A model generated the notes under the pieces. That model was not told the origin of the DNA. It was given only the letters and a program-made list of their open reading frames with translations, and did not search any database. A DNA stretch of 64,000 bases from an uncultured Gammaproteobacteria bacterium (GTDB lineage: Bacteria; Pseudomonadota; Gammaproteobacteria; DRLM01), in NCBI GenBank assembly GCA_963810615.1, contig CAWEOA010000001.1, forward strand, positions 119,297 through 183,296, given 5' to 3'. The position numbers and the translations under genes are program-made. Shown here one piece after another: positions 45,446 through 54,757 of the stretch. Within the stretch, counting starts at the first letter, position 1; each line of letters begins with the position of its first letter.

Positions 45446-45940
<495 letters not shown>

Positions 45941-46188
45941 TCGCATAAAACAAATATTATTCAAAGAGTTTTTTCATTTCTGTTGGGAGCGTGCCGACCA
46001 CTCGGTCGGTCTAATATTTCCAAATCTTACATCTGCGTGAATGTCCGGTTGACTTTATGCGGATATCACTAGAATCTAATAACTAATAATAGGTACTTAA
46101 GAATAAAAATTGGCCAAACCCAGTGGGGTATTTGGCGGGGGGAGGGGGCTGGTGTCAGATATGACGCTCCGGCCCATGAGGGTCAGTT

Positions 46189-49100
46189 ATGCGTGATCAA
46201 AACGACGAGAAGAGGCTTTCCGCCGGGCTGGGAGCGGGCACTATTTCGCTTGCCAAACTCAGTATGCCCCGCTCGGCAAAAGGTATTGTGCGGCCGCGCC
46301 TGCATAACATACTGGATGAGGCGCGCACAAGCAGTGCGGTGTGGATAGTATCCCCGGGCGGTGCCGGCAAGACCACGCTGACCGCCACCTATATCGCGGA
46401 ACGGCAGCTCCCCTATCTGTGGTATCAGATGGATAAGGACGATGCCGATCCCGCTACCTTTTTCTACTATCTTGGCTTGGCGGCCAAGCAGAGCCGGCCG
46501 GGTCAAGAAGTGTTTCTACCGCTGCTGACTTCCGAGTACCTCCACGACATTCCGGGTTTTGCGCGCCGCTATTTTCGTCAACTGTTTGCCTTGTTACCGC
46601 GCAAAAGTGTCGTGGTGCTGGATAATTACCAGGATCTCTTGAGTGCCGACGTGATAAATGAGGTGCTGCGCAATGCCATCGGCGAGCTGCCGGAGGGCAG
46701 CAATATCATTGTTATCGGCCGTAGCTCTCCGCCGCCTGTATTGGCGCGCTTGCAAGTGACCGGTGAACTGGAGATCATTGCCTGGGAGGATTTGTGCTTC
46801 AGCTACGATGAAACCGAAGCGATAGTCAGAGGGAATGACAGAAGCCTGGACACAAAAATCATACGCACGCTGCATAAGCGTTCGGAAGGCTGGGTCGCGG
46901 CATTGACCCTGATGTTGAAGCAGATTGGGAAAAAGCGTACGGAAGAGCAAAGTGTAGGGCTAGAGTCCCTGGAGCGGATATTTGATTTTTTCGCCAGTGA
47001 GTTTTTCGATGAGCTGCCGGATGCTACCCGTGATTTCCTGTTGCAAACTTCGCTATTGACGCATATTACGCCGAGTATGGCGGTTGCGGTGAGCGGGAAT
47101 AACGATGCCGGCAAGATACTCGCTACCCTCCATCGGCAGCAATTTTTCACCAGCCGGCGGGATTTGTCCGAAGTTACCTATCAATATCACGCCTTGTTCC
47201 GTGAATTTCTGATGGCAAGGGCCGTTGAGACCTACACCCGAGAACAATATCTCGAACTGACGCGCAGGGTGGGAAACTCGCTCGAAAAACACGGTCGCGA
47301 AGAGGAGGCCATTGCACTTTATCTTCAGTCCCAGGCATGGGCGGAGGCCGGAAGATTGATCCTGGTACAGGCGCCGCAACTGCTTGCTCAAGCCCGGGCG
47401 CAAATCGTCGCGGGTTGGCTACAATGCCTGCCCGAAGAAATACTGATGGCGACACCCTGGTTGTTATATTGGCGAGGTATCAGCCAGCAGTGCGTCAATC
47501 CATTCGAGGCGCGAGCGACGCTGGAGCAGGCCTATGCGAGTTTTGCGGATGATGGGGATGTTTTAGGGCAATTGTGCGCAGCATCCGCCATCATCGATAT
47601 CATATTTTTCGTAAGAGAAAGCCTGCTGTCCACCACCCGCTGGATCGAAGTGCTGCAAAATTCCCTTGCGATGCATTTGAAATTTCCTTCCGCGCAGATT
47701 GAGGCCCGCATCATATCTAGCCTGTTTTCGGTGTTGATGTACATTCGTCCCCAGGAACCACAGCTGCCGATTTACGCTGAGCGGCTCATGATATTGCTCG
47801 ATGAAGATTTGGAAATGAATCAGAAGGTGATGATTGGGGCGCATCTCGTCAATTATTACTCCCACGCGCTTGGCGATCTCAGCGCCTGCGAGCGCATCAG
47901 TATGCGCATCACGCCTGCGCTGTCTTCACCGCAGGTCACGCCCGTCACACAGATGATGTGGAGATGTTTTAACGTGCTGCCAAACCTCCTGAGCGGCGAG
48001 GATGAGCTGGCTTATGAATTGGTTCGTCCACTGCCGGCGCTGATAAAGGAAAATAATCTGCCATTCATGGGGCTGCTTGCGAAATTCTATTTAATACTCG
48101 TGAATATATATCGGGGAGATATGCGCGGCTCGCAACAGCTACTGGAGCGTATGTCGACAGTGATGAATACATCCCAACCCGCCGATGTAGCCTGGCTCTG
48201 TTTGGCCAGATGTTGGTATGCCTTATCGAGAGGCGATTATTCCACGGCACACAACCAGGGCCAGGCTTCATTGCAGGTTATTTCCAGCGTGGGTGCCACG
48301 CTCACAGAAATTGATGTCAGTTGCCTCATCGCGCTTGAGCGCATCCAAAGCAAAAAATATGACGAGGCCCTAGGTTACCTGGCCATGCCCCGTAAACTGG
48401 GCTTTGCCCATAGTCCGCGCATCCGTCATCAAGTGTTATTAGTTGAGGCCTATTCATATTTCCGGCAGAGTAATAGTCCGAATGGCCTCGAGCGCCTTCG
48501 GGAGGCCTTCGCTATCGGGAGCAATGAAAACTACTTTGGCAGTATCTATTGCTGGTTCCCGAAAGAGGTGATGACGCGACTTTGTTCCGAGGCGCTGAGA
48601 GCCGGTATCGAAGTCGAATATACGCAGCGCTTGATTTCCATTCGCAAGCTACTCCCCGACGATCCGTACATGGAGGACTGGCCATGGCCCATCAGAATTT
48701 ATACCTTGGGGTCTTTCAGGTTGGTTATTAACGGTCAGTCCCATTCTTTGGAGGGCAAAGCCCAGTACAAGCCGCTTAAGCTGCTCAAAATCTTGGTGGC
48801 CTTAGGTGGTCAGGAAGTGAAAGAAGAAAAAATAAGTGAGTTACTGTGGCCAGATGCCGAGGGAGATGCGGCCCATTCCGCATTTACCACCACCTTGTCG
48901 CGCCTGCGAAAATTGCTCGGCGACGACACGGTCGCCGTTAAAAACGGGCGATTGAGCCTGAATAAACTGCGTTGTTGGGTGGATGTCTGGGTCCTTGAAG
49001 AGCAGCTTGATCAACTGCAAATGACTAGTGCCGATCAGATGGAGCTGCGAACGCTTGTGGATAAAATCATTGCCCTTTATCGGGGGCCGTTCATGAATGA

Positions 49101-49413
49101 TGAGGATGGGATTTGGGTGGAGCGGTTGCGGCAGCGTCTACAGTCGGTGTTTTTCCGTTTCATATTGCACTATGGCCGAACCCTGTCCGTGGAGCATGCC
49201 GATGAGGGTCAAGTTGCTCGATCAGTCGAATTGAGCGCGGCATTTGATCCATGCGCGGATGATTTTTATCGCAGTCTCCTGACCAGCTATACAGTTATGG
49301 GCCAGAGAGCCGAGACGCTTGATGCTTATTCTCAGTGTCGTGAGATTCTCACTCGTGATTTTGGGGTCATTCCTGCCGATGTGAATAAAATCTTCCGCGG
49401 TAATTCAGATTAA
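46189..49413 (+). CDS. MalT-like STAND NTPase with helical/TPR sensor and C-terminal wHTH-BTAD (SARP-like) regulator
   Basis: SPGGAGKTT, VLDNYQD, SEGWVAAL, YQYHALFREFL; C-terminal IYTLGSF, LLWPD, LSRLRK, LYRGPF and BTAD-like tail. Confidence 0.85.
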   Translation: MRDQNDEKRLSAGLGAGTISLAKLSMPRSAKGIVRPRLHNILDEARTSSAVWIVSPGGAGKTTLTATYIAERQLPYLWYQMDKDDADPATFFYYLGLAAKQSRPGQEVFLPLLTSEYLHDIPGFARRYFRQLFALLPRKSVVVLDNYQDLLSADVINEVLRNAIGELPEGSNIIVIGRSSPPPVLARLQVTGELEIIAWEDLCFSYDETEAIVRGNDRSLDTKIIRTLHKRSEGWVAALTLMLKQIGKKRTEEQSVGLESLERIFDFFASEFFDELPDATRDFLLQTSLLTHITPSMAVAVSGNNDAGKILATLHRQQFFTSRRDLSEVTYQYHALFREFLMARAVETYTREQYLELTRRVGNSLEKHGREEEAIALYLQSQAWAEAGRLILVQAPQLLAQARAQIVAGWLQCLPEEILMATPWLLYWRGISQQCVNPFEARATLEQAYASFADDGDVLGQLCAASAIIDIIFFVRESLLSTTRWIEVLQNSLAMHLKFPSAQIEARIISSLFSVLMYIRPQEPQLPIYAERLMILLDEDLEMNQKVMIGAHLVNYYSHALGDLSACERISMRITPALSSPQVTPVTQMMWRCFNVLPNLLSGEDELAYELVRPLPALIKENNLPFMGLLAKFYLILVNIYRGDMRGSQQLLERMSTVMNTSQPADVAWLCLARCWYALSRGDYSTAHNQGQASLQVISSVGATLTEIDVSCLIALERIQSKKYDEALGYLAMPRKLGFAHSPRIRHQVLLVEAYSYFRQSNSPNGLERLREAFAIGSNENYFGSIYCWFPKEVMTRLCSEALRAGIEVEYTQRLISIRKLLPDDPYMEDWPWPIRIYTLGSFRLVINGQSHSLEGKAQYKPLKLLKILVALGGQEVKEEKISELLWPDAEGDAAHSAFTTTLSRLRKLLGDDTVAVKNGRLSLNKLRCWVDVWVLEEQLDQLQMTSADQMELRTLVDKIIALYRGPFMNDEDGIWVERLRQRLQSVFFRFILHYGRTLSVEHADEGQVARSVELSAAFDPCADDFYRSLLTSYTVMGQRAETLDAYSQCREILTRDFGVIPADVNKIFRGNSD

Positions 49414-49499
49414 AATTAATTTCGTCCTGGAGTTCCCGGCCTCATTCAAGCGATCCTGCCCCGCATCGTTACGTACCTTTTCCAATTGGCTTTTTGGCC

Positions 49500-49539
49500 G
49501 AATCGTGTGATCTATTTGTGACTTTCCATGTGGTATAGA
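49500..49539 (+). promoter_or_regulatory. TGTGA direct-repeat promoter, copy 1
   Basis: GAATCG TGTGA tctatt TGTGA ctttcca TGTGG TATAGA; repeats start at 49506, 49517, 49529. Confidence 0.65.
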
Positions 49540-49756
49540 GGTGGGAATGAGGCTGCATTATTTTAATAGTCTCGCGGCGATGCGAATAATTGCGGGCGAG
49601 GGGTGAGGGCAACTGTTCGGATGGTGAGCAAAAAGGTTGCGCCCTTCAATTTCAGACCAGGTACTTGGATGGCATTCCGGCGCTGAAAATGTGGTGGCCT
49701 TGCGAGGCGCTAATTTTTTATATCTAGGCGAGATGTGTATAAGCAATACGCCAAAT

Positions 49757-50479
49757 ATGGCTATGAATGAAGCGTTAACGGCAAAGATCATGCGCCCGCG
49801 CTTTGCACGGGCTCATCGGCGCAGTGATCTGCTTGGTTTGCTGGATGTATTGAATCCGGCGCGGTTGATCATAGTCAGTGGTTTGATCGGGGCGGGGAAA
49901 ACGGCGCTGGTCAGTAGTTACGTCGAGACTAGAAATGTGCCTTGCCTGTGGTATCAACTAGACCGGAATGACGAGAACCTTGTCAATTTCTTCGCTTTTA
50001 TGAGCATGGCGGCAGCCGCTGTCCAGCCGCGAAAGAAAGACGAGGTGCCGCTGGCTTCACCGGAATGCACCGTGGGTGTATCGATGCATGTGAAAAGTTA
50101 TTTTCGCGACTTATATCAATTTCTGGAATCGCCGTTCTTTGTGGTTTTTAACAATTGCCAAGAATTGCGGGTAGATGGGCCGTTGCTGGGGGTATTACGG
50201 GACGCTTGCGATGTGCTTCCGGCAAATGGTCGTATGATCATGATCAGCAGCAATGAAAATCCTCCGACGTTGGTGTGGTTACGGACCAATTGTTCGGTAA
50301 TCACAGTTGGCTGGCAGGAGCTGCGCCTCGATCCCAATAAGTTTGAAAATGATGCAGTCCTGAACGCGCGAGCCCTACCGACCGACGAAGCTGCCAAGCG
50401 ATTACGGCGCATGGTTGGTAATTGGGCGGCGGAGCTGCTACTGGACTTGCAGTCCTCGCTCAACGGCGATAGCAATTAA
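49757..50479 (+). CDS. NTPase-only MalT-like STAND paralog 1 (degenerate Walker B)
   Basis: AKIMRP, GLIGAGKT, LWYQLDRNDENLVNFF, FVVFNNCQE; ends after VGNWAAEL; start uncertain (49733/49757/49763). Confidence 0.8.
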   Translation: MAMNEALTAKIMRPRFARAHRRSDLLGLLDVLNPARLIIVSGLIGAGKTALVSSYVETRNVPCLWYQLDRNDENLVNFFAFMSMAAAAVQPRKKDEVPLASPECTVGVSMHVKSYFRDLYQFLESPFFVVFNNCQELRVDGPLLGVLRDACDVLPANGRMIMISSNENPPTLVWLRTNCSVITVGWQELRLDPNKFENDAVLNARALPTDEAAKRLRRMVGNWAAELLLDLQSSLNGDSN

Positions 50480-50716
50480 TCTATTCAAAATATATTACAG
50501 GTCGTGTTGATAGCCTATTTGCCAAGTCGAATCACCATGAATTCATGAGCGCTCTATTCACTGTGTTCACAACTTTATCTTTACTCCTTGAGTCTGCGAG
50601 TTAAAATTTATAATGACCTTGCTGCGCGGCTTTTATCCGGCATTCAATTTCACAGTTTTGACATTAAGTGAGTGATGTCATTTGCACGTAAGCGGCATAG
50701 CGTGATGTTATATCGG

Positions 50717-50757
50717 GAATCGGTGTGACTTTTTTGTGACCCATTTTGTGATATGTA
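50717..50757 (+). promoter_or_regulatory. TGTGA direct-repeat promoter, copy 2
   Basis: GAATCGG TGTGA cttttt TGTGA cccattt TGTGA TATGTA; repeats start at 50724, 50735, 50747. Confidence 0.65.
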
Positions 50758-50888
50758 TGGAAAACACTACATGCTAAATCTGGGGGTCAATTATCCAAGA
50801 GAGAAGGATTTGGTTTCAATGATCATCGGCGGTGACGCGGCATGCACTTTGCATTGTATCCACATGATAGCTCAATGGAGGAAATATC

Positions 50889-51686
50889 ATGAGTATGTGG
50901 TGGCGCAATATCATCGACCCCGTATTGGTTTCCGGCAAGACTAATCCTCGTGTAAATAAGGGGATAGGTATGAGAGGGAAGAAAGTGATACTCACCAAGG
51001 TCACGCGACCCCGTCTACAACTTACTTACCCACGCACTGATTTGTTCAATTTGCTGGACGAGTTAAGTGCAACGCCATTAATCATGGTTAACGGCTTGCC
51101 TGGCTCCGGTAAAACTACCCTGATGTCGAGTTATATAGAAACTCGTAATATCCCGTGTCTGTGGTTTCAAGTGGATCGCAATGACCAGGACCTGTCTACA
51201 TTCTTTTATTATCTTGGAATTGCCGCGCTCAGAAGCAATCCCTATAACAAGGCCGCCTTGCCTCGAGTTTCCCCCGAACGAGTCTTTAAGGTGGCTTCGG
51301 TGGCAAAGGAGTACTTTCAGAAGCTTTATCAATGTCTTGAACCTCCCTTCATGATTGTGTTGGATCAATATCATGAACTTCCCGCAGATGCCGCGTTGCA
51401 CGATGTGATAGCAGAAGCGTGTGTAGCACTTCCTCCGGGGGGGCGGATCGTATTGATCCGCAACAGTGATTGCCAAGCGAATGTCCCCCGTCTGCGCACT
51501 CAGCGCACGGTCGCCACCCTCGGTTGTGAAGAACTGCAACTGAGTCCGGGAGAAGTTAGAGAGATTGCGGCTTTGCACGGGGTGAGATTACCGTCCGAGC
51601 AGGCGGCCAGGCAGTTGCAGGCCAAAGTGGATGGCAGGGCGGCGGGACTTGTCAATGAGCTGAAAAGGGAATTTCTGCCCCAATGA
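50889..51686 (+). CDS. NTPase-only MalT-like STAND paralog 2
   Basis: TKVTRP, GLPGSGKTT, LWFQVDRNDQDLSTFFYYLG, VLDQYHE; ends after VDGRAAGL; GGAGG RBS. Confidence 0.82.
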   Translation: MSMWWRNIIDPVLVSGKTNPRVNKGIGMRGKKVILTKVTRPRLQLTYPRTDLFNLLDELSATPLIMVNGLPGSGKTTLMSSYIETRNIPCLWFQVDRNDQDLSTFFYYLGIAALRSNPYNKAALPRVSPERVFKVASVAKEYFQKLYQCLEPPFMIVLDQYHELPADAALHDVIAEACVALPPGGRIVLIRNSDCQANVPRLRTQRTVATLGCEELQLSPGEVREIAALHGVRLPSEQAARQLQAKVDGRAAGLVNELKREFLPQ

Positions 51687-52477
51687 AAGGACTTCACCAT
51701 GTATCGGATTGGATTTAGGGCGATGCGTTGGAGTGCTCGCCGGATATCCGATCACTTACAGGTGACGGTTCAGATAGCGGGCATTTCAATCGGTTCGTTA
51801 AGCGCGGGAGTGGGCGCCGGTGACGCTTAGTGGCAGAGTGTTCAGGCGCTTGCAGGGGTTATGTACGGCCGTAATAGGGTCTTTCAGATCTGGCGCCTGG
51901 TATCGTTAGTTTGTCGATGCAGAGTTTCTTTTAGCCGCCTGTTGATACCAATATCTGGCTCGTTCTTTATCCTTTATCAACCCTAACCACCCCTCTTGGT
52001 AGGCATGAGCAAGGAATTCCTGCGCAACCGCATTGCCGTTTGAAGCAATTTTATATAACCATTGTGCAGTATCATTATTATGCACTGTGGGATGCCTTAA
52101 GCTATTTCACCTTATTATTCTATAGATTGTAGCCCGGGAATTAATTACCAAAGCCTGAATAGGCCCCACGGATGCCATGCATACTGCGATATGGCCGTTT
52201 GGGCGTTGCGGGGACGTCGACATTTCAGTGCGATATGGGCTTGTCGCTCTCATATGTGCCGCTAGTACACGGCATCTGGTCTCGCGCCAAATGGCTTCCG
52301 TCTCCGCGATATGGGTAAGGGTACCAGTCCTAGGCTCAGCCATCATGGACGGGTGCCGGGGTGTGTAAACTCCATGGTGAGCGGCACGAATATTACCTAT
52401 AAATGTCCCTGTGTTACTTTATTTTGCCCAGTGGCTTGTTGTTGGGGCAGACAACGCTTATTCTATTGCCCCTTCCG

Positions 52478-52570
52478 GGAGAGGTACCGAAGTGGCCATA
52501 CCGGCACCGACTCGAAATCGGTTGGGGGCTTTACCGCCCCACGTGGGTTCGAATCCCACCCTCTCCGCCA
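52478..52570 (+). tRNA. tRNA-Ser(CGA)
   Basis: Acceptor stem GGAGAGG/CCTCTCC-G-CCA, anticodon arm ACCGA-CT-CGA-AA-TCGGT, long variable arm, GGTTCGAATCC. Confidence 0.97.
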
Positions 52571-53222
52571 TACCCTCGATGATTCACTTACTTTGATTGG
52601 TCTGCCGCACGGGGATTAGAACCCTCGTGGAAATCAATTATCCTGGTTTGACGACCGAGCGGATTTTGCGAGGGAGCACGTCGTCCCTAAGAGGTGGATA
52701 GGAATCCTCCCGTATCCTGAACCGAACTGTTCGGTTTAACGAAACGCATGGCTCATAAAATTAATTCGACGCTTGGCAGGTCGAACGCTCTAGGTCGGCT
52801 CATGCCTTGTTGCGTATGGGTATACGGGCGTTCCGGCTTTCTGGGTATCTTGAGCAGAGTCCGGCTTCAAACTGTCCCAATATATCTGCACAAAGGTGAA
52901 GTTGGTTGGCAGAACGTAGTGTAGGGAAGTCTTGAATCATGTTAAACATGACAATCAATATGGTATTAATCTTCCAGTTCATGGGGCGTTGTGGACGCTT
53001 GCTGTATAGAAGCGTTCATGCATCATGACGGGAAAGTGTGGATAAACCTTTGCTTATCGCCTCCAAGCGGCCGTTGTCGAACAATCACCCATCTGAATTC
53101 TGAACCGAGTCTTACTCGAGGGGTCTAATTCGCACCGAGACTCTGCAGCGGTTGTGTGGAGCCTGTCGGAATTGGTTGTAGCATGCGCGCTTTATTGTGC
53201 AAGAGATAAAGGAGACAGGCAT

Positions 53223-53570
53223 ATGAAAGTTATCTGGAAGAATGTGATATGTATGCTGGCGGGTTTGTGGTTGTGGTTATCTCCCTTTATTTTACAATTC
53301 AAGTTGGGTTCACACGCCTCCAGCGATGCAAATATCGTGGGGATCTTTATCGGGACCTTATCAATGATGGCGATTGCGACGCCACAGGTCTGGGAGGAAT
53401 GGACCAAGGTGGTATTGGGTGTCTGGTTGCTTGCCTCTCCCTGGCTGCTGGGCTTCAGCCATCAAACTGTGGCCGCAGACAATATTATGCTCGTAGGTTT
53501 GGTGGTGGTGATTCTGTCCTTGTGGTCTCTGGCTCGGCGTTCAATGCCGCAGCCGCTTACTAATAGTTAA
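53223..53570 (+). CDS. SPW repeat membrane protein
   Basis: GLWLWLSPFIL and GVWLLASPWLLGF repeats; AAGGAG RBS. Confidence 0.88.
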   Translation: MKVIWKNVICMLAGLWLWLSPFILQFKLGSHASSDANIVGIFIGTLSMMAIATPQVWEEWTKVVLGVWLLASPWLLGFSHQTVAADNIMLVGLVVVILSLWSLARRSMPQPLTNS

Positions 53571-53597
53571 TTGAAGTAGGGTATCTTTGGCCGTGTG

Positions 53598-53626
53598 CGG
53601 GAGAGGAGTGGTTTCTCCCTCCCGCC
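53598..53626 (+). terminator. GC-rich hairpin after SPW gene (no clear U-tract)
   Basis: GCGGGAGAGGAG...CTCCCTCCCGC imperfect stem. Confidence 0.35.
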
Positions 53627-53869
53627 GGGCCCGTTGCGCTCAGAGTAGGATAATTCTATGCACGAACGGTTCCCTTAAGTGCCTGTGATTTCGGTGTAGT
53701 GAAGGCTATGTACCGTTCCGCTGCGGTTGAGCAGGCGCTGCAGGTAATGGAAAAGCTTCACGGTCAGTCTCTGAACGATGTCTGTCTCGATGCACTCATT
53801 AAATGTCTGCCCGAGTTCAATCTGAACTGAAGTGCGATTCAGAAGCTATCGGGTTAAAAGCTGGTCGCA

Positions 53870-54757
53870 TCACCAGATGCATCTATGGACTACGTGCTGT
53901 TCCTTTAGGAAATCTTCGGCTTGGGCGCCGTGCAACATTGCGAAGGTCGCCAGCATTCCGGCCTCGATACAGGTCTGAGCCGCGACGGTGACCGCACGGG
54001 GGCCGTCGGGCACCGGCCAGCCGCTTTGAGGGTCGAGAATATGGCTATAGCGGACCCCGTCCTTGAAGAGAAAACGGCGGGCGTCGCCGCTGGTGGCGAC
54101 ACCGCCGTGGTGCAAACGCAGAATGCCGGCCTGCTTATTTTCACCGCCATAGGGGTCGTTGATCCCGACAATCCACTCGCCATCGCCGCGGCGTGGACCG
54201 CTGATGTACATATCGCCGCCGAAGTTGATCAGGGTGCTGACGGAAGTGGCCTGGCGGCATAGCAGGGCACAGCGATCCACGGCGTATTCTTTGCCGACGC
54301 CGCCGAAGTCCAGTTCCATGCCCGGGGGCAGGGTGAGGAAGGGGTTCTGCCAGGAGATCTTGGACCAGCCGATATGTTCCAGCAGGGTGGCGACGGCGGA
54401 TGGGGACGGGATGCGATCCGAGCCGTCGAAGCGCCATGCCTTGCGGAGTATGCCGGATGTGATATCGAATTTCCCCCCGCTCAATCGATAACACTGATCG
54501 GCGTAGTCCAGCAGTCGCGCCGTCTCGGTGTCGACGCGGACGGTTTGGCCGGTGCTGCGATTGATTCTGGAGGTTTCGCTGTCTTCGCGGTAGCGGCTGT
54601 ATTTTTGCTCGATGCGCAGCGCCTCCGCGCTGACCAAGCCAGCTAGCGATTGGGCGAGATCGGGGTCATCGCTGTCGATGAGAATCTCACATGGGCTGGC
54701 CATACAGGAAAAGGAGCCGCGCCAATGGCCGGCGGATTCCACCCAATCACACTCCAT
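53870..54757 (-). CDS. apbE: FAD:protein FMN transferase
   Basis: SRYREDS, GKFDIT, LDFGGVGKEYAVD, NFGGD, ATSGD, YSHILDP. Confidence 0.94.
   Translation of the reverse strand: MECDWVESAGHWRGSFSCMASPCEILIDSDDPDLAQSLAGLVSAEALRIEQKYSRYREDSETSRINRSTGQTVRVDTETARLLDYADQCYRLSGGKFDITSGILRKAWRFDGSDRIPSPSAVATLLEHIGWSKISWQNPFLTLPPGMELDFGGVGKEYAVDRCALLCRQATSVSTLINFGGDMYISGPRRGDGEWIVGINDPYGGENKQAGILRLHHGGVATSGDARRFLFKDGVRYSHILDPQSGWPVPDGPRAVTVAAQTCIEAGMLATFAMLHGAQAEDFLKEQHVVHRCIW

Follow-up and report, generated by a model that had tools for sequence, protein, structure and literature searches.

Phased direct-repeat promoters beside a gene for a MalT-like switch with a C-terminal SARP module in a gammaproteobacterium, and the adjacent regulator as their likely activator

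In an uncultured gammaproteobacterium (GTDB lineage DRLM01; assembly GCA_963810615.1), two short genes follow the gene of a large STAND-type regulator, and each is preceded by a similar promoter built from TGTGA repeats, which raises the question of what protein reads these promoters. The genes lie in a 64,000-nucleotide stretch of contig CAWEOA010000001.1 (positions 119,297 to 183,296, forward strand), hereafter the window; coordinates refer to the window unless they are preceded by a contig (C) or locus (L) handle, and relatives are denoted by G numbers, the present genome being G000. On comparative evidence the pair is a real, conserved set of activator-type promoters, and the adjacent regulator, referred to as FULL, is likely to be the activator that acts at their 11-bp-phased, -35-replacing repeats. 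The elements concerned are as follows (aa, amino acids; NOD, nucleotide-binding oligomerization domain; wHTH, winged helix-turn-helix; PWM, position weight matrix).

46189..49413, + strand: FULL, 1074 aa, with a MalT-like NOD (a P-loop STAND ATPase), a helical, TPR-like middle and a C-terminal SARP module
48862..48918, + strand: predicted recognition helix of the FULL wHTH, residues 892-910, GDAAHSAFTTTLSRLRKLL
49500..49539, + strand: promoter 1, 93 bp past the FULL stop codon; flank GAATCG (49500-49505), TGTGAT (49506-49511), spacer CTATT, TGTGAC (49517-49522), N8 (49523-49530), extended -10 TGG (49531-49533) and TATAGA (49534-49539); PWM score 44.4
49757..50479, + strand: short1, about 240 aa; the open reading frame is open from 49637, the ATG at 49757 fits the homologs and the ATG at 49733 is possible
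50717..50757, + strand: promoter 2; flank GAATCGG (50717-50723), TGTGAC (50724-50729), spacer TTTTT, TGTGAC (50735-50740), N8 (50741-50748), extended -10 TGA (50749-50751) and TATGTA (50752-50757); PWM score 40.1
50889..51686, + strand: short2, 265 aa from the ATG at 50889, or 239 aa from the ATG at 50967, the start that matches the homologs

A preliminary description of this DNA saw the same triple direct repeat, TGTGA-N6-TGTGAC-N6-TGTGR, in front of both short genes. The sequences and coordinates are as it gave them: with at most one mismatch, the pattern matches the window twice (49506-49533 and 50724-50751), compared with a mean of 0.01 in 100 shuffles, none of which reached two, and these are its sole matches in the whole genome (3,339,879 bases, 8 contigs). 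The identity and the third repeat did not stand, however, as the two promoters agree at 28 of 40 aligned positions (counted by eye) and the third unit is not a repeat. Ten sites were aligned: seven from this genome, one before each short-gene ortholog of G002 and G005, and one before an HDOD-GGDEF ortholog in G004. The third unit was assigned to an extended -10 element, which has a TG ahead of the -10, because TG-n-TA was the one constant part at that place across the ten sites; this alternative had already been raised in the preliminary description. A triple-repeat reading was rejected, since TG-n-TA alone is conserved there in distant loci as well. Read from the alignment, the true form of the motif is TGTGAC-N5-TGTGAC-N8-TGnTAnnnT, with two 11-bp-phased repeats at the place of the -35 element, followed by an extended -10. 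A CRP/FNR site was also rejected; the consensus of such sites is an inverted repeat, TGTGA-N6-TCACA, whereas the second half here is again TGTGA, making the repeat direct.

The arrangement has the two features looked for in a SARP-type operator. Direct repeats with an 11-nt period (TGTGAY-N5-TGTGAC) were found at both promoters, and the period holds in the ten aligned sites and in distant loci. The distance to the -10 is fixed: in nine of the ten aligned sites, 8 nt separate the end of the proximal hexamer from the TG of the extended -10, and 11 nt separate it from the -10 hexamer (at the exception, C3:218168, the TG is moved by one base), and no -35/-10 pair was called at either promoter in a sigma-70 consensus scan. 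Transcription is predicted to start near 49546 from promoter 1 and near 50764 from promoter 2. A search of the leaders for known RNAs returned none, a tRNA being the sole match. When the leaders of short1 and short2 were aligned with the leaders of their orthologs in two further species, conservation was confined to the motif block. This bears out the earlier remark that the remaining spacers are dissimilar, and the remark that the motif is missing upstream of the full-length gene was likewise confirmed, neither the PWM nor a sequence-agnostic scan yielding one.

The genome contains seven exact copies of TGTGAC-N5-TGTGAC, where base composition predicts about 0.4, while matches with one mismatch number ten, which is the chance level (13.1 expected). 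Two of the seven exact matches look unlike the rest: C8:423287 is a Pho-type box of ppk on the other strand, and C7:164986 is without a -10. A 38-nt PWM retrieved seven sites scoring 32.5-44.9 bits from the genome, with nothing further at or above 18 bits; the absence of intermediate scores and the seven promoters bear out the idea that the motif could define a regulon. Six of these seven sites, namely four exact matches and the one-mismatch sites C1:168802 and C2:366302, have TG-n-TA at the fixed distance. A detector that is blind to the hexamer sequence (any NGTNNN hexamer repeated at 11 nt and followed by TGnTA, on both genome strands) returned four matches with identical hexamers, all four of them TGTGAC. 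Allowing five of six identical positions added C1:168802, C2:366302 and three GC-rich matches that look random. The sites of the regulon precede the following genes.

short1 and short2, NOD-only proteins
an HDOD-GGDEF diguanylate cyclase, 511 aa
a Crp/Fnr-type regulator, 247 aa
a secreted DUF642 and CARDB protein, 687 aa
a lipoprotein-like protein of no family, 326 aa
a second full-length paralog of FULL, with the site TGTGAC-CGATT-TGTGAC 945 bp upstream (C3:218168)

In the promoter of the Crp/Fnr-like gene (C3:13757-13790, minus strand), an inverted copy precedes the distal hexamer; the resulting palindrome, GTCACA-AG-TGTGAC, could be the site of a second factor.

In G002, of the same genus, and in G005, of another genus, the motif block precedes the short-gene ortholog by 274 bp, and in G004 it stands ahead of the HDOD-GGDEF ortholog. 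Among 41 relatives, 13 genomes carry the SARP module, the five of the genus among them, and the full promoter pattern is confined to G000, G002, G004 and G005. A survey of 401 class-wide genomes found the exact pattern with TGNTA in G000 (four times) and G005 (once) only, and the reversed pattern, used as a control, in none. The target promoter of G002 is perfectly kept. Exact TGTGAC-N5-TGTGAC copies in G016 (six) and G006 (two) were set aside, having no -10 and lying in genomes with no homolog of the SARP module. These copies (L030, L035, L037, L039, L041 and L043 in G016; L019 and L032 in G006) have a T-rich spacer and adjoin integrase genes or sit inside a repeated element (flank caagggcagaggag), and may be recombinase arm sites.

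The link between such repeats and the regulator gene was followed into other phyla. A scan of species-representative genomes with four close rows confirmed 150 relatives and returned 80 loci, chiefly full-length homologs from metagenome-assembled genomes (MAGs) of Desulfobacterota, Nitrospirota, Geobacteraceae and Brocadiaceae. Of these loci, 53 have a complete gene with a 3' flank, and in 17 of them a fixed-hexamer detector found TGTNAC-N5-TGTNAC in the strand of the gene, at most 600 bp past the regulator stop, in the position that promoter 1 has after FULL. The opposite strand gave three of 53, and two in-gene windows gave 0/53 each; several opposite-strand matches in another search were the same near-palindromic sites read backwards, which may also hold for these three. 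The layout hexamer-N5-hexamer-N8-TGnTA is constant in the distant loci while the hexamer varies, TGTAAC being the commonest, with TGTTAC, TGTAAG, TGTAGG, CGTGAG and others also present.

The hexamer was found to vary together with the recognition helix of the adjacent protein. According to a study of AfsR, R87 is among the residues that contact bases (PMC11301090), and T900 of FULL aligns to it in a HMMER alignment. Eighteen of 65 loci have exactly one site by the sequence-agnostic detector. In these, an acidic residue (Asp or Glu) occupies the R87-equivalent position in 9/10 cases in which the proximal hexamer ends in G, and in 0/8 in which it ends in C, counts that ignore kinship. Where the hexamer ends in C, Lys or Arg accompanies TGTAAC (4/5), Thr accompanies TGTGAC (2/2) and Val accompanies TGTTAC. 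The regulators with TGTGAC-type sites (FULL, its G005 and G002 orthologs, and L087 and L131 from other phyla) all have Thr and share the helix motif AFTTT[LVA][S/Q]RLR; they occupy three separate places in a tree whose deep forks lack resolution. One well-supported clade places L115 (Lys, TGTAAC) beside L098 (Glu, CGTAAG/CGTGGG), the L098 site being outside the set of the strict detector and seen in a separate inspection. The pairing of Glu with CGTG-G was also found in L089, which is outside the tree.

Domain searches placed a SARP module at the C-terminus of FULL. The Pfam profile BTAD matched residues 931-1063 with 49.1 bits (cut-off 22.1), and Trans_reg_C matched 861-914 with 19.9 bits, under its cut-off of 26.2. 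NCBIfam profiles matched residues 22-430 to MalT (E 7.4e-54) and 836-1063 to AfsR (E 6.6e-12), both below the equivalog cut-off, and sequence searches of the PDB retrieved MalT (8bob_C, E 1.2e-24) and AfsR (8hvr_I, E 4.9e-5). An AlphaFold model of residues 825-1074 (pLDDT 81.4), with a helix at positions 68-86 of the fragment, is predicted to have the wHTH and BTAD of a SARP domain in an AfsR/EmbR-like fold; its closest fold matches were the SARP domain of AfsR, as seen in a transcription activation complex (8hvr_I, E 1.9e-9, TM 0.67), and EmbR (2ff4, E 2.9e-8), the next ones all having E values of at least 0.025. The large SARPs of the AfsR type have an N-terminal SARP domain, followed by an NB-ARC-type ATPase and TPRs, and FULL is not of this type because its SARP module is C-terminal and its ATPase matches MalT (22-430), not AfsR. 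Like MalT and the LAL regulators, FULL has an N-terminal MalT-like NOD; their C-terminal LuxR-type helix-turn-helix was not found, a Pfam scan of FULL giving no LuxR/GerE match. The second full-length paralog (C3:219113-222283, 1056 aa) has the same domain set.

FULL is the likely activator because the repeat promoter is linked to its gene across phyla (17/53 loci, versus 0/53 in-gene) and because hexamer and helix covary. The preliminary description had taken the repeats for an OmpR/SARP-type operator beside the promoter core, and the adjacent full-length regulator for its binder; both views gain comparative support, the second from gene linkage and covariation. By analogy with AfsR and PimR, a mechanism may be proposed in which the two hexamers would be occupied by two SARP modules in head-to-tail orientation, as in AfsR; these would replace the contact of sigma region 4 with the -35, recruiting RNA polymerase to the extended -10 promoter. 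The MalT-like NOD would gate the SARP output with ATP and a ligand, and FULL would in this way switch on the seven transcription units that carry the operator. Binding and its activating sign are predictions from sequence, as are the transcription starts and whatever the short proteins may do.

Several observations weigh against this assignment to FULL. The site was seen in 17/53 loci with the fixed-hexamer detector, or in 18/65 with the agnostic one, and in the remaining loci none was detected in the flank. The covariation counts take no account of kinship, L113 and L139 are near-identical, and the deep forks of the tree are poorly resolved. Exceptions to the covariation are G007 (Thr with TGTTAY) and L094 (Asn with CGTAAG/TGTAAG), and in L071 and L143 the alignment is out of register. 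G004 has kept the site, yet no regulator ortholog was found in its 83%-complete assembly. In G002 the regulator ortholog and the short gene are 212 kb apart, and the ortholog is broken into four pieces (C2, about 308.5-311.4 kb; frames 3/1/2/1; residues 18-978), breaks that may reflect either indel errors in a long-read MAG or decay of the gene. The site ahead of the second paralog, with its TG displaced by one base, shows no conservation in G001. Finally, an extended -10 may work without a -35, so that occupancy of the operator could repress, and TGTGAC is one central base off the Pho half-site of this genome, TGTCAC, so that cross-binding by PhoB is possible. The last three points lead to the alternatives considered next.

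The second full-length paralog might itself be the binder, or the two paralogs might share one operator. The short genes fall in one clade with this paralog (support 100/100), it has the domain set of FULL, and a perfect TGTGAC-CGATT-TGTGAC stands upstream of its gene. Its recognition helix (..SLATSLFRLRK), however, has Ala at the R87-equivalent position and departs from the motif shared by the regulators of TGTGAC sites. No repeat promoter was found past the paralog's own stop, and the upstream site, as noted, is not conserved in G001. That genome has the ortholog of the second paralog alone and no such promoter, even before its own short homolog. Taken together, these observations make a role of the second paralog as binder unlikely.

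The repeats might also be bound by PhoB or another OmpR-family response regulator, which would place the short genes in a phosphate regulon or that of another two-component system. The genome encodes PhoB and seven other full-length OmpR-type regulators, and it contains the following Pho boxes.

C8:905638-905654: Pho box of pstS
C8:897984-898000: Pho box of phoB
C8:423287-423303: Pho box of ppk

These boxes, like that of pstS in G001 (L033), read GTCACA-N5-GTCAYA toward the gene. In the pstS, phoB and ppk promoters the GTCACA-N5-GTCAYA or TGTCAY repeats are phased at 11 bp and end some 10 nt ahead of a -10. TGTnACA is palindromic, and TGTGAC is both one base from the local Pho half-site and its reverse complement; for this reason Pho boxes match the search pattern of the operator. 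Two of the seven exact matches, the ppk box and the site that lacks a -10, stood apart from the others. Compared with a Pho box, for which the consensus half-site of Escherichia coli (TGTCAY), a distance of about 10 nt to the -10 and phosphate genes downstream were taken as marks, the present promoters have another central base, a longer distance to the -10 (11 versus 10 nt) and an extended -10, and a recognisable phosphate gene lies downstream of none of them. The pattern occurs in 2/401 class-wide genomes, whereas PhoB would be expected in most. The layout, moreover, follows the STAND-SARP gene into other phyla, where the hexamers are un-Pho-like and covary with the helix of that protein. 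Control by PhoB or a related response regulator is therefore quite improbable.

Another alternative keeps FULL as the binder and reverses its sign: the promoters would be constitutive extended -10 promoters, blocked by FULL until a signal frees the protein. Extended -10 promoters can function without a -35, STAND proteins change their oligomeric state with ligand and ATP, and the operator overlaps the core promoter, all of which would suit repression. Against it, the spacing between hexamer and -10 is fixed (the nine of ten aligned sites given above, and distant phyla), which is a signature of contact between a bound protein and polymerase, and the output module has the SARP fold, which activates from exactly that position. 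Repression is accordingly given little credence. Short1 and short2 are tandem paralogs with 40% protein identity, but that the likeness of their spacers is a functionless remnant of the duplication behind them can practically be dismissed because the rest of the leaders has diverged past alignment while the block is kept in two other species and recurs before four unrelated genes in this genome.

With FULL retained as the likely activator, the nature of its nearest targets can be considered. The short proteins correspond to MalT residues of about 3-228 (NCBIfam MalT, positions 5-228, E 3.4e-11, for short1, and 3-222, E 6e-17, for short2); they and the single short genes of G002 and G005 are 40-50% identical to one another. 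Walker A is present in all of them in the alignment. Short1 has Asn-Asn (VVFNN) where the others carry the presumed Walker-B Asp (IVLDN), as read from the alignment, and may bind nucleotide without hydrolysing it. In a tree of N-terminal sequences, short1 and short2 group with their counterparts from G002 and G005 in one clade (100/95), which is sister to the clade of the second paralog (joint support 100/100), and the FULL clade (100/99) stands apart from both. Short2 shares 50% identity with the N-terminus of the second paralog and 31% with FULL. The suggestion that the regulator drives its own truncated paralogs is thus contradicted; given these groupings, FULL appears to drive truncated copies of the NOD of the other paralog. 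The feedback loop put forward in the same description stays hypothetical, and no copy of the motif was found ahead of FULL itself. It is conceivable, though rather doubtful, that the NOD-only proteins are regulated decoys, fragments induced by FULL that would cap or seed oligomers of the second paralog (or of FULL). Such decoys would form a cross-paralog circuit of two STAND transcription factors, analogous to truncated plant NLRs.

In the distant loci, short open reading frames were considered as true short genes and rejected, most being full-length genes split by frameshifts. A different protein of about 75 aa lies right after the regulator, behind the repeat promoter, in 21/80 distant loci, with the core YIVRIYR..NP..VG.VE...AF..ELW.IL; four of these are listed here, and 17 further loci have one.

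L072:7322-7543: 75-aa protein
L124:5072-5287: 75-aa protein
L136:7359-7592: 75-aa protein
L131:7572-7805: 75-aa protein

It belongs to no Pfam or NCBIfam family, a protein atlas gives 'hypothetical protein' clusters only, and no homolog was found in the present genome. Because distant relatives fill the slot after the regulator with this unrelated protein, it is conceivable that the gene in this place generally encodes something that modulates the regulator.

The locus lies in a stretch of lower G+C content (window 46000-54000, about 0.49-0.54, compared with 0.57-0.63 around it), bounded by tadA (45482-45940) and tRNA-Ser(cga) (52478-52570). Past the tRNA, at 53154-53570, is an SPW-repeat membrane protein (Pfam PF03779, E 6.2e-24) with no evident link to the promoters. 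In G002 the short gene directly follows tadA, and in both G002 and G005 it is followed by a frame that seems to resemble a translated tRNA. The slot between tadA and the tRNA appears to be old, since the short genes of G002 and G005 share tadA or tRNA-like neighbours.

Proteins that combine a MalT-like switch with a C-terminal SARP module occur widely in Desulfobacterota, Nitrospirota and anammox bacteria and in some Gammaproteobacteria. This family now gains a precise predicted operator, a rule that ties one residue of the recognition helix to the last base of the operator, and a complete predicted regulon in one genome, comprising a cyclic di-GMP synthase, a Crp-like regulator, secreted proteins and the NOD-only pair. 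Operator, rule and regulon together lend themselves to direct testing, by gel shifts and reporters as well as by specificity swaps. A practical consequence is that motif scans for a Pho box or for the STAND-SARP operator will each pick up the other. The NOD-only targets, the whole-genome regulon and the covariation of helix and operator are new here, and SARP-style activation from phased repeats would extend beyond the antibiotic clusters of actinomycetes.

Among known systems, the Pho boxes of PhoB share with these promoters the 11-bp-phased direct repeats in place of the -35, with a half-site one base off (TGTCAY versus TGTGAC); the central base, the spacing of 11 versus 10 nt, the extended -10, the target genes, the restriction to few lineages and the linkage to a STAND-SARP gene set them apart. 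MalT of E. coli and the LAL regulators are related to FULL through its N-terminal 430 residues, which are homologous to the MalT NOD. MalT itself binds MalT boxes, and FULL differs in having a SARP output in place of a LuxR-type helix-turn-helix and a site that is a phased direct repeat at the -35.

A literature search for a MalT-like switch joined to a C-terminal SARP module returned no studied member, the regulators found being those with an N-terminal SARP domain and GSU1771 of Geobacter sulfurreducens. GSU1771 is, like FULL, a non-actinobacterial protein with a C-terminal SARP-type wHTH and activator domain; it carries an N-terminal receiver domain instead of a MalT-like NOD and belongs to a different family (PMC10599522). 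PimR, a SARP-LAL protein, is like FULL a large ATP-binding SARP regulator hard-wired to a neighbouring target; pimM is its single target, reached via heptamer direct repeats with 4-nt spacers and an 11-nt period (PMC5930380). The SARP domain of PimR is N-terminal and the protein acts in antibiotic clusters, whereas FULL would be wired to a NOD-only paralog, and its distant relatives to a 75-aa protein, with five further sites in the present genome. The closest likeness is to AfsR and the Streptomyces SARPs at the afsS promoter (PDB 8hvr, 8k60), which share the OmpR-type winged helix and BTAD output, AfsR being also a STAND ATPase. In SARP promoters the repeats extend over the -35, at a distance of 8 nt upstream from the -10, and those of AfsR are direct repeats one helical turn apart over the -35, at the same 8 nt from the -10 (PMC11301090). 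Unlike in AfsR, the domain order of FULL is inverted, with the SARP module C-terminal, and its NOD is MalT-like; the FULL family, known from sequence alone, belongs to Gram-negative, non-actinobacterial phyla, and the hexamer TGTGAC and the extended -10 are further differences. Judged by its layout, the predicted operator is one that works as a SARP operator, and the protein that probably reads it is neither an AfsR-type large SARP nor a LAL regulator.

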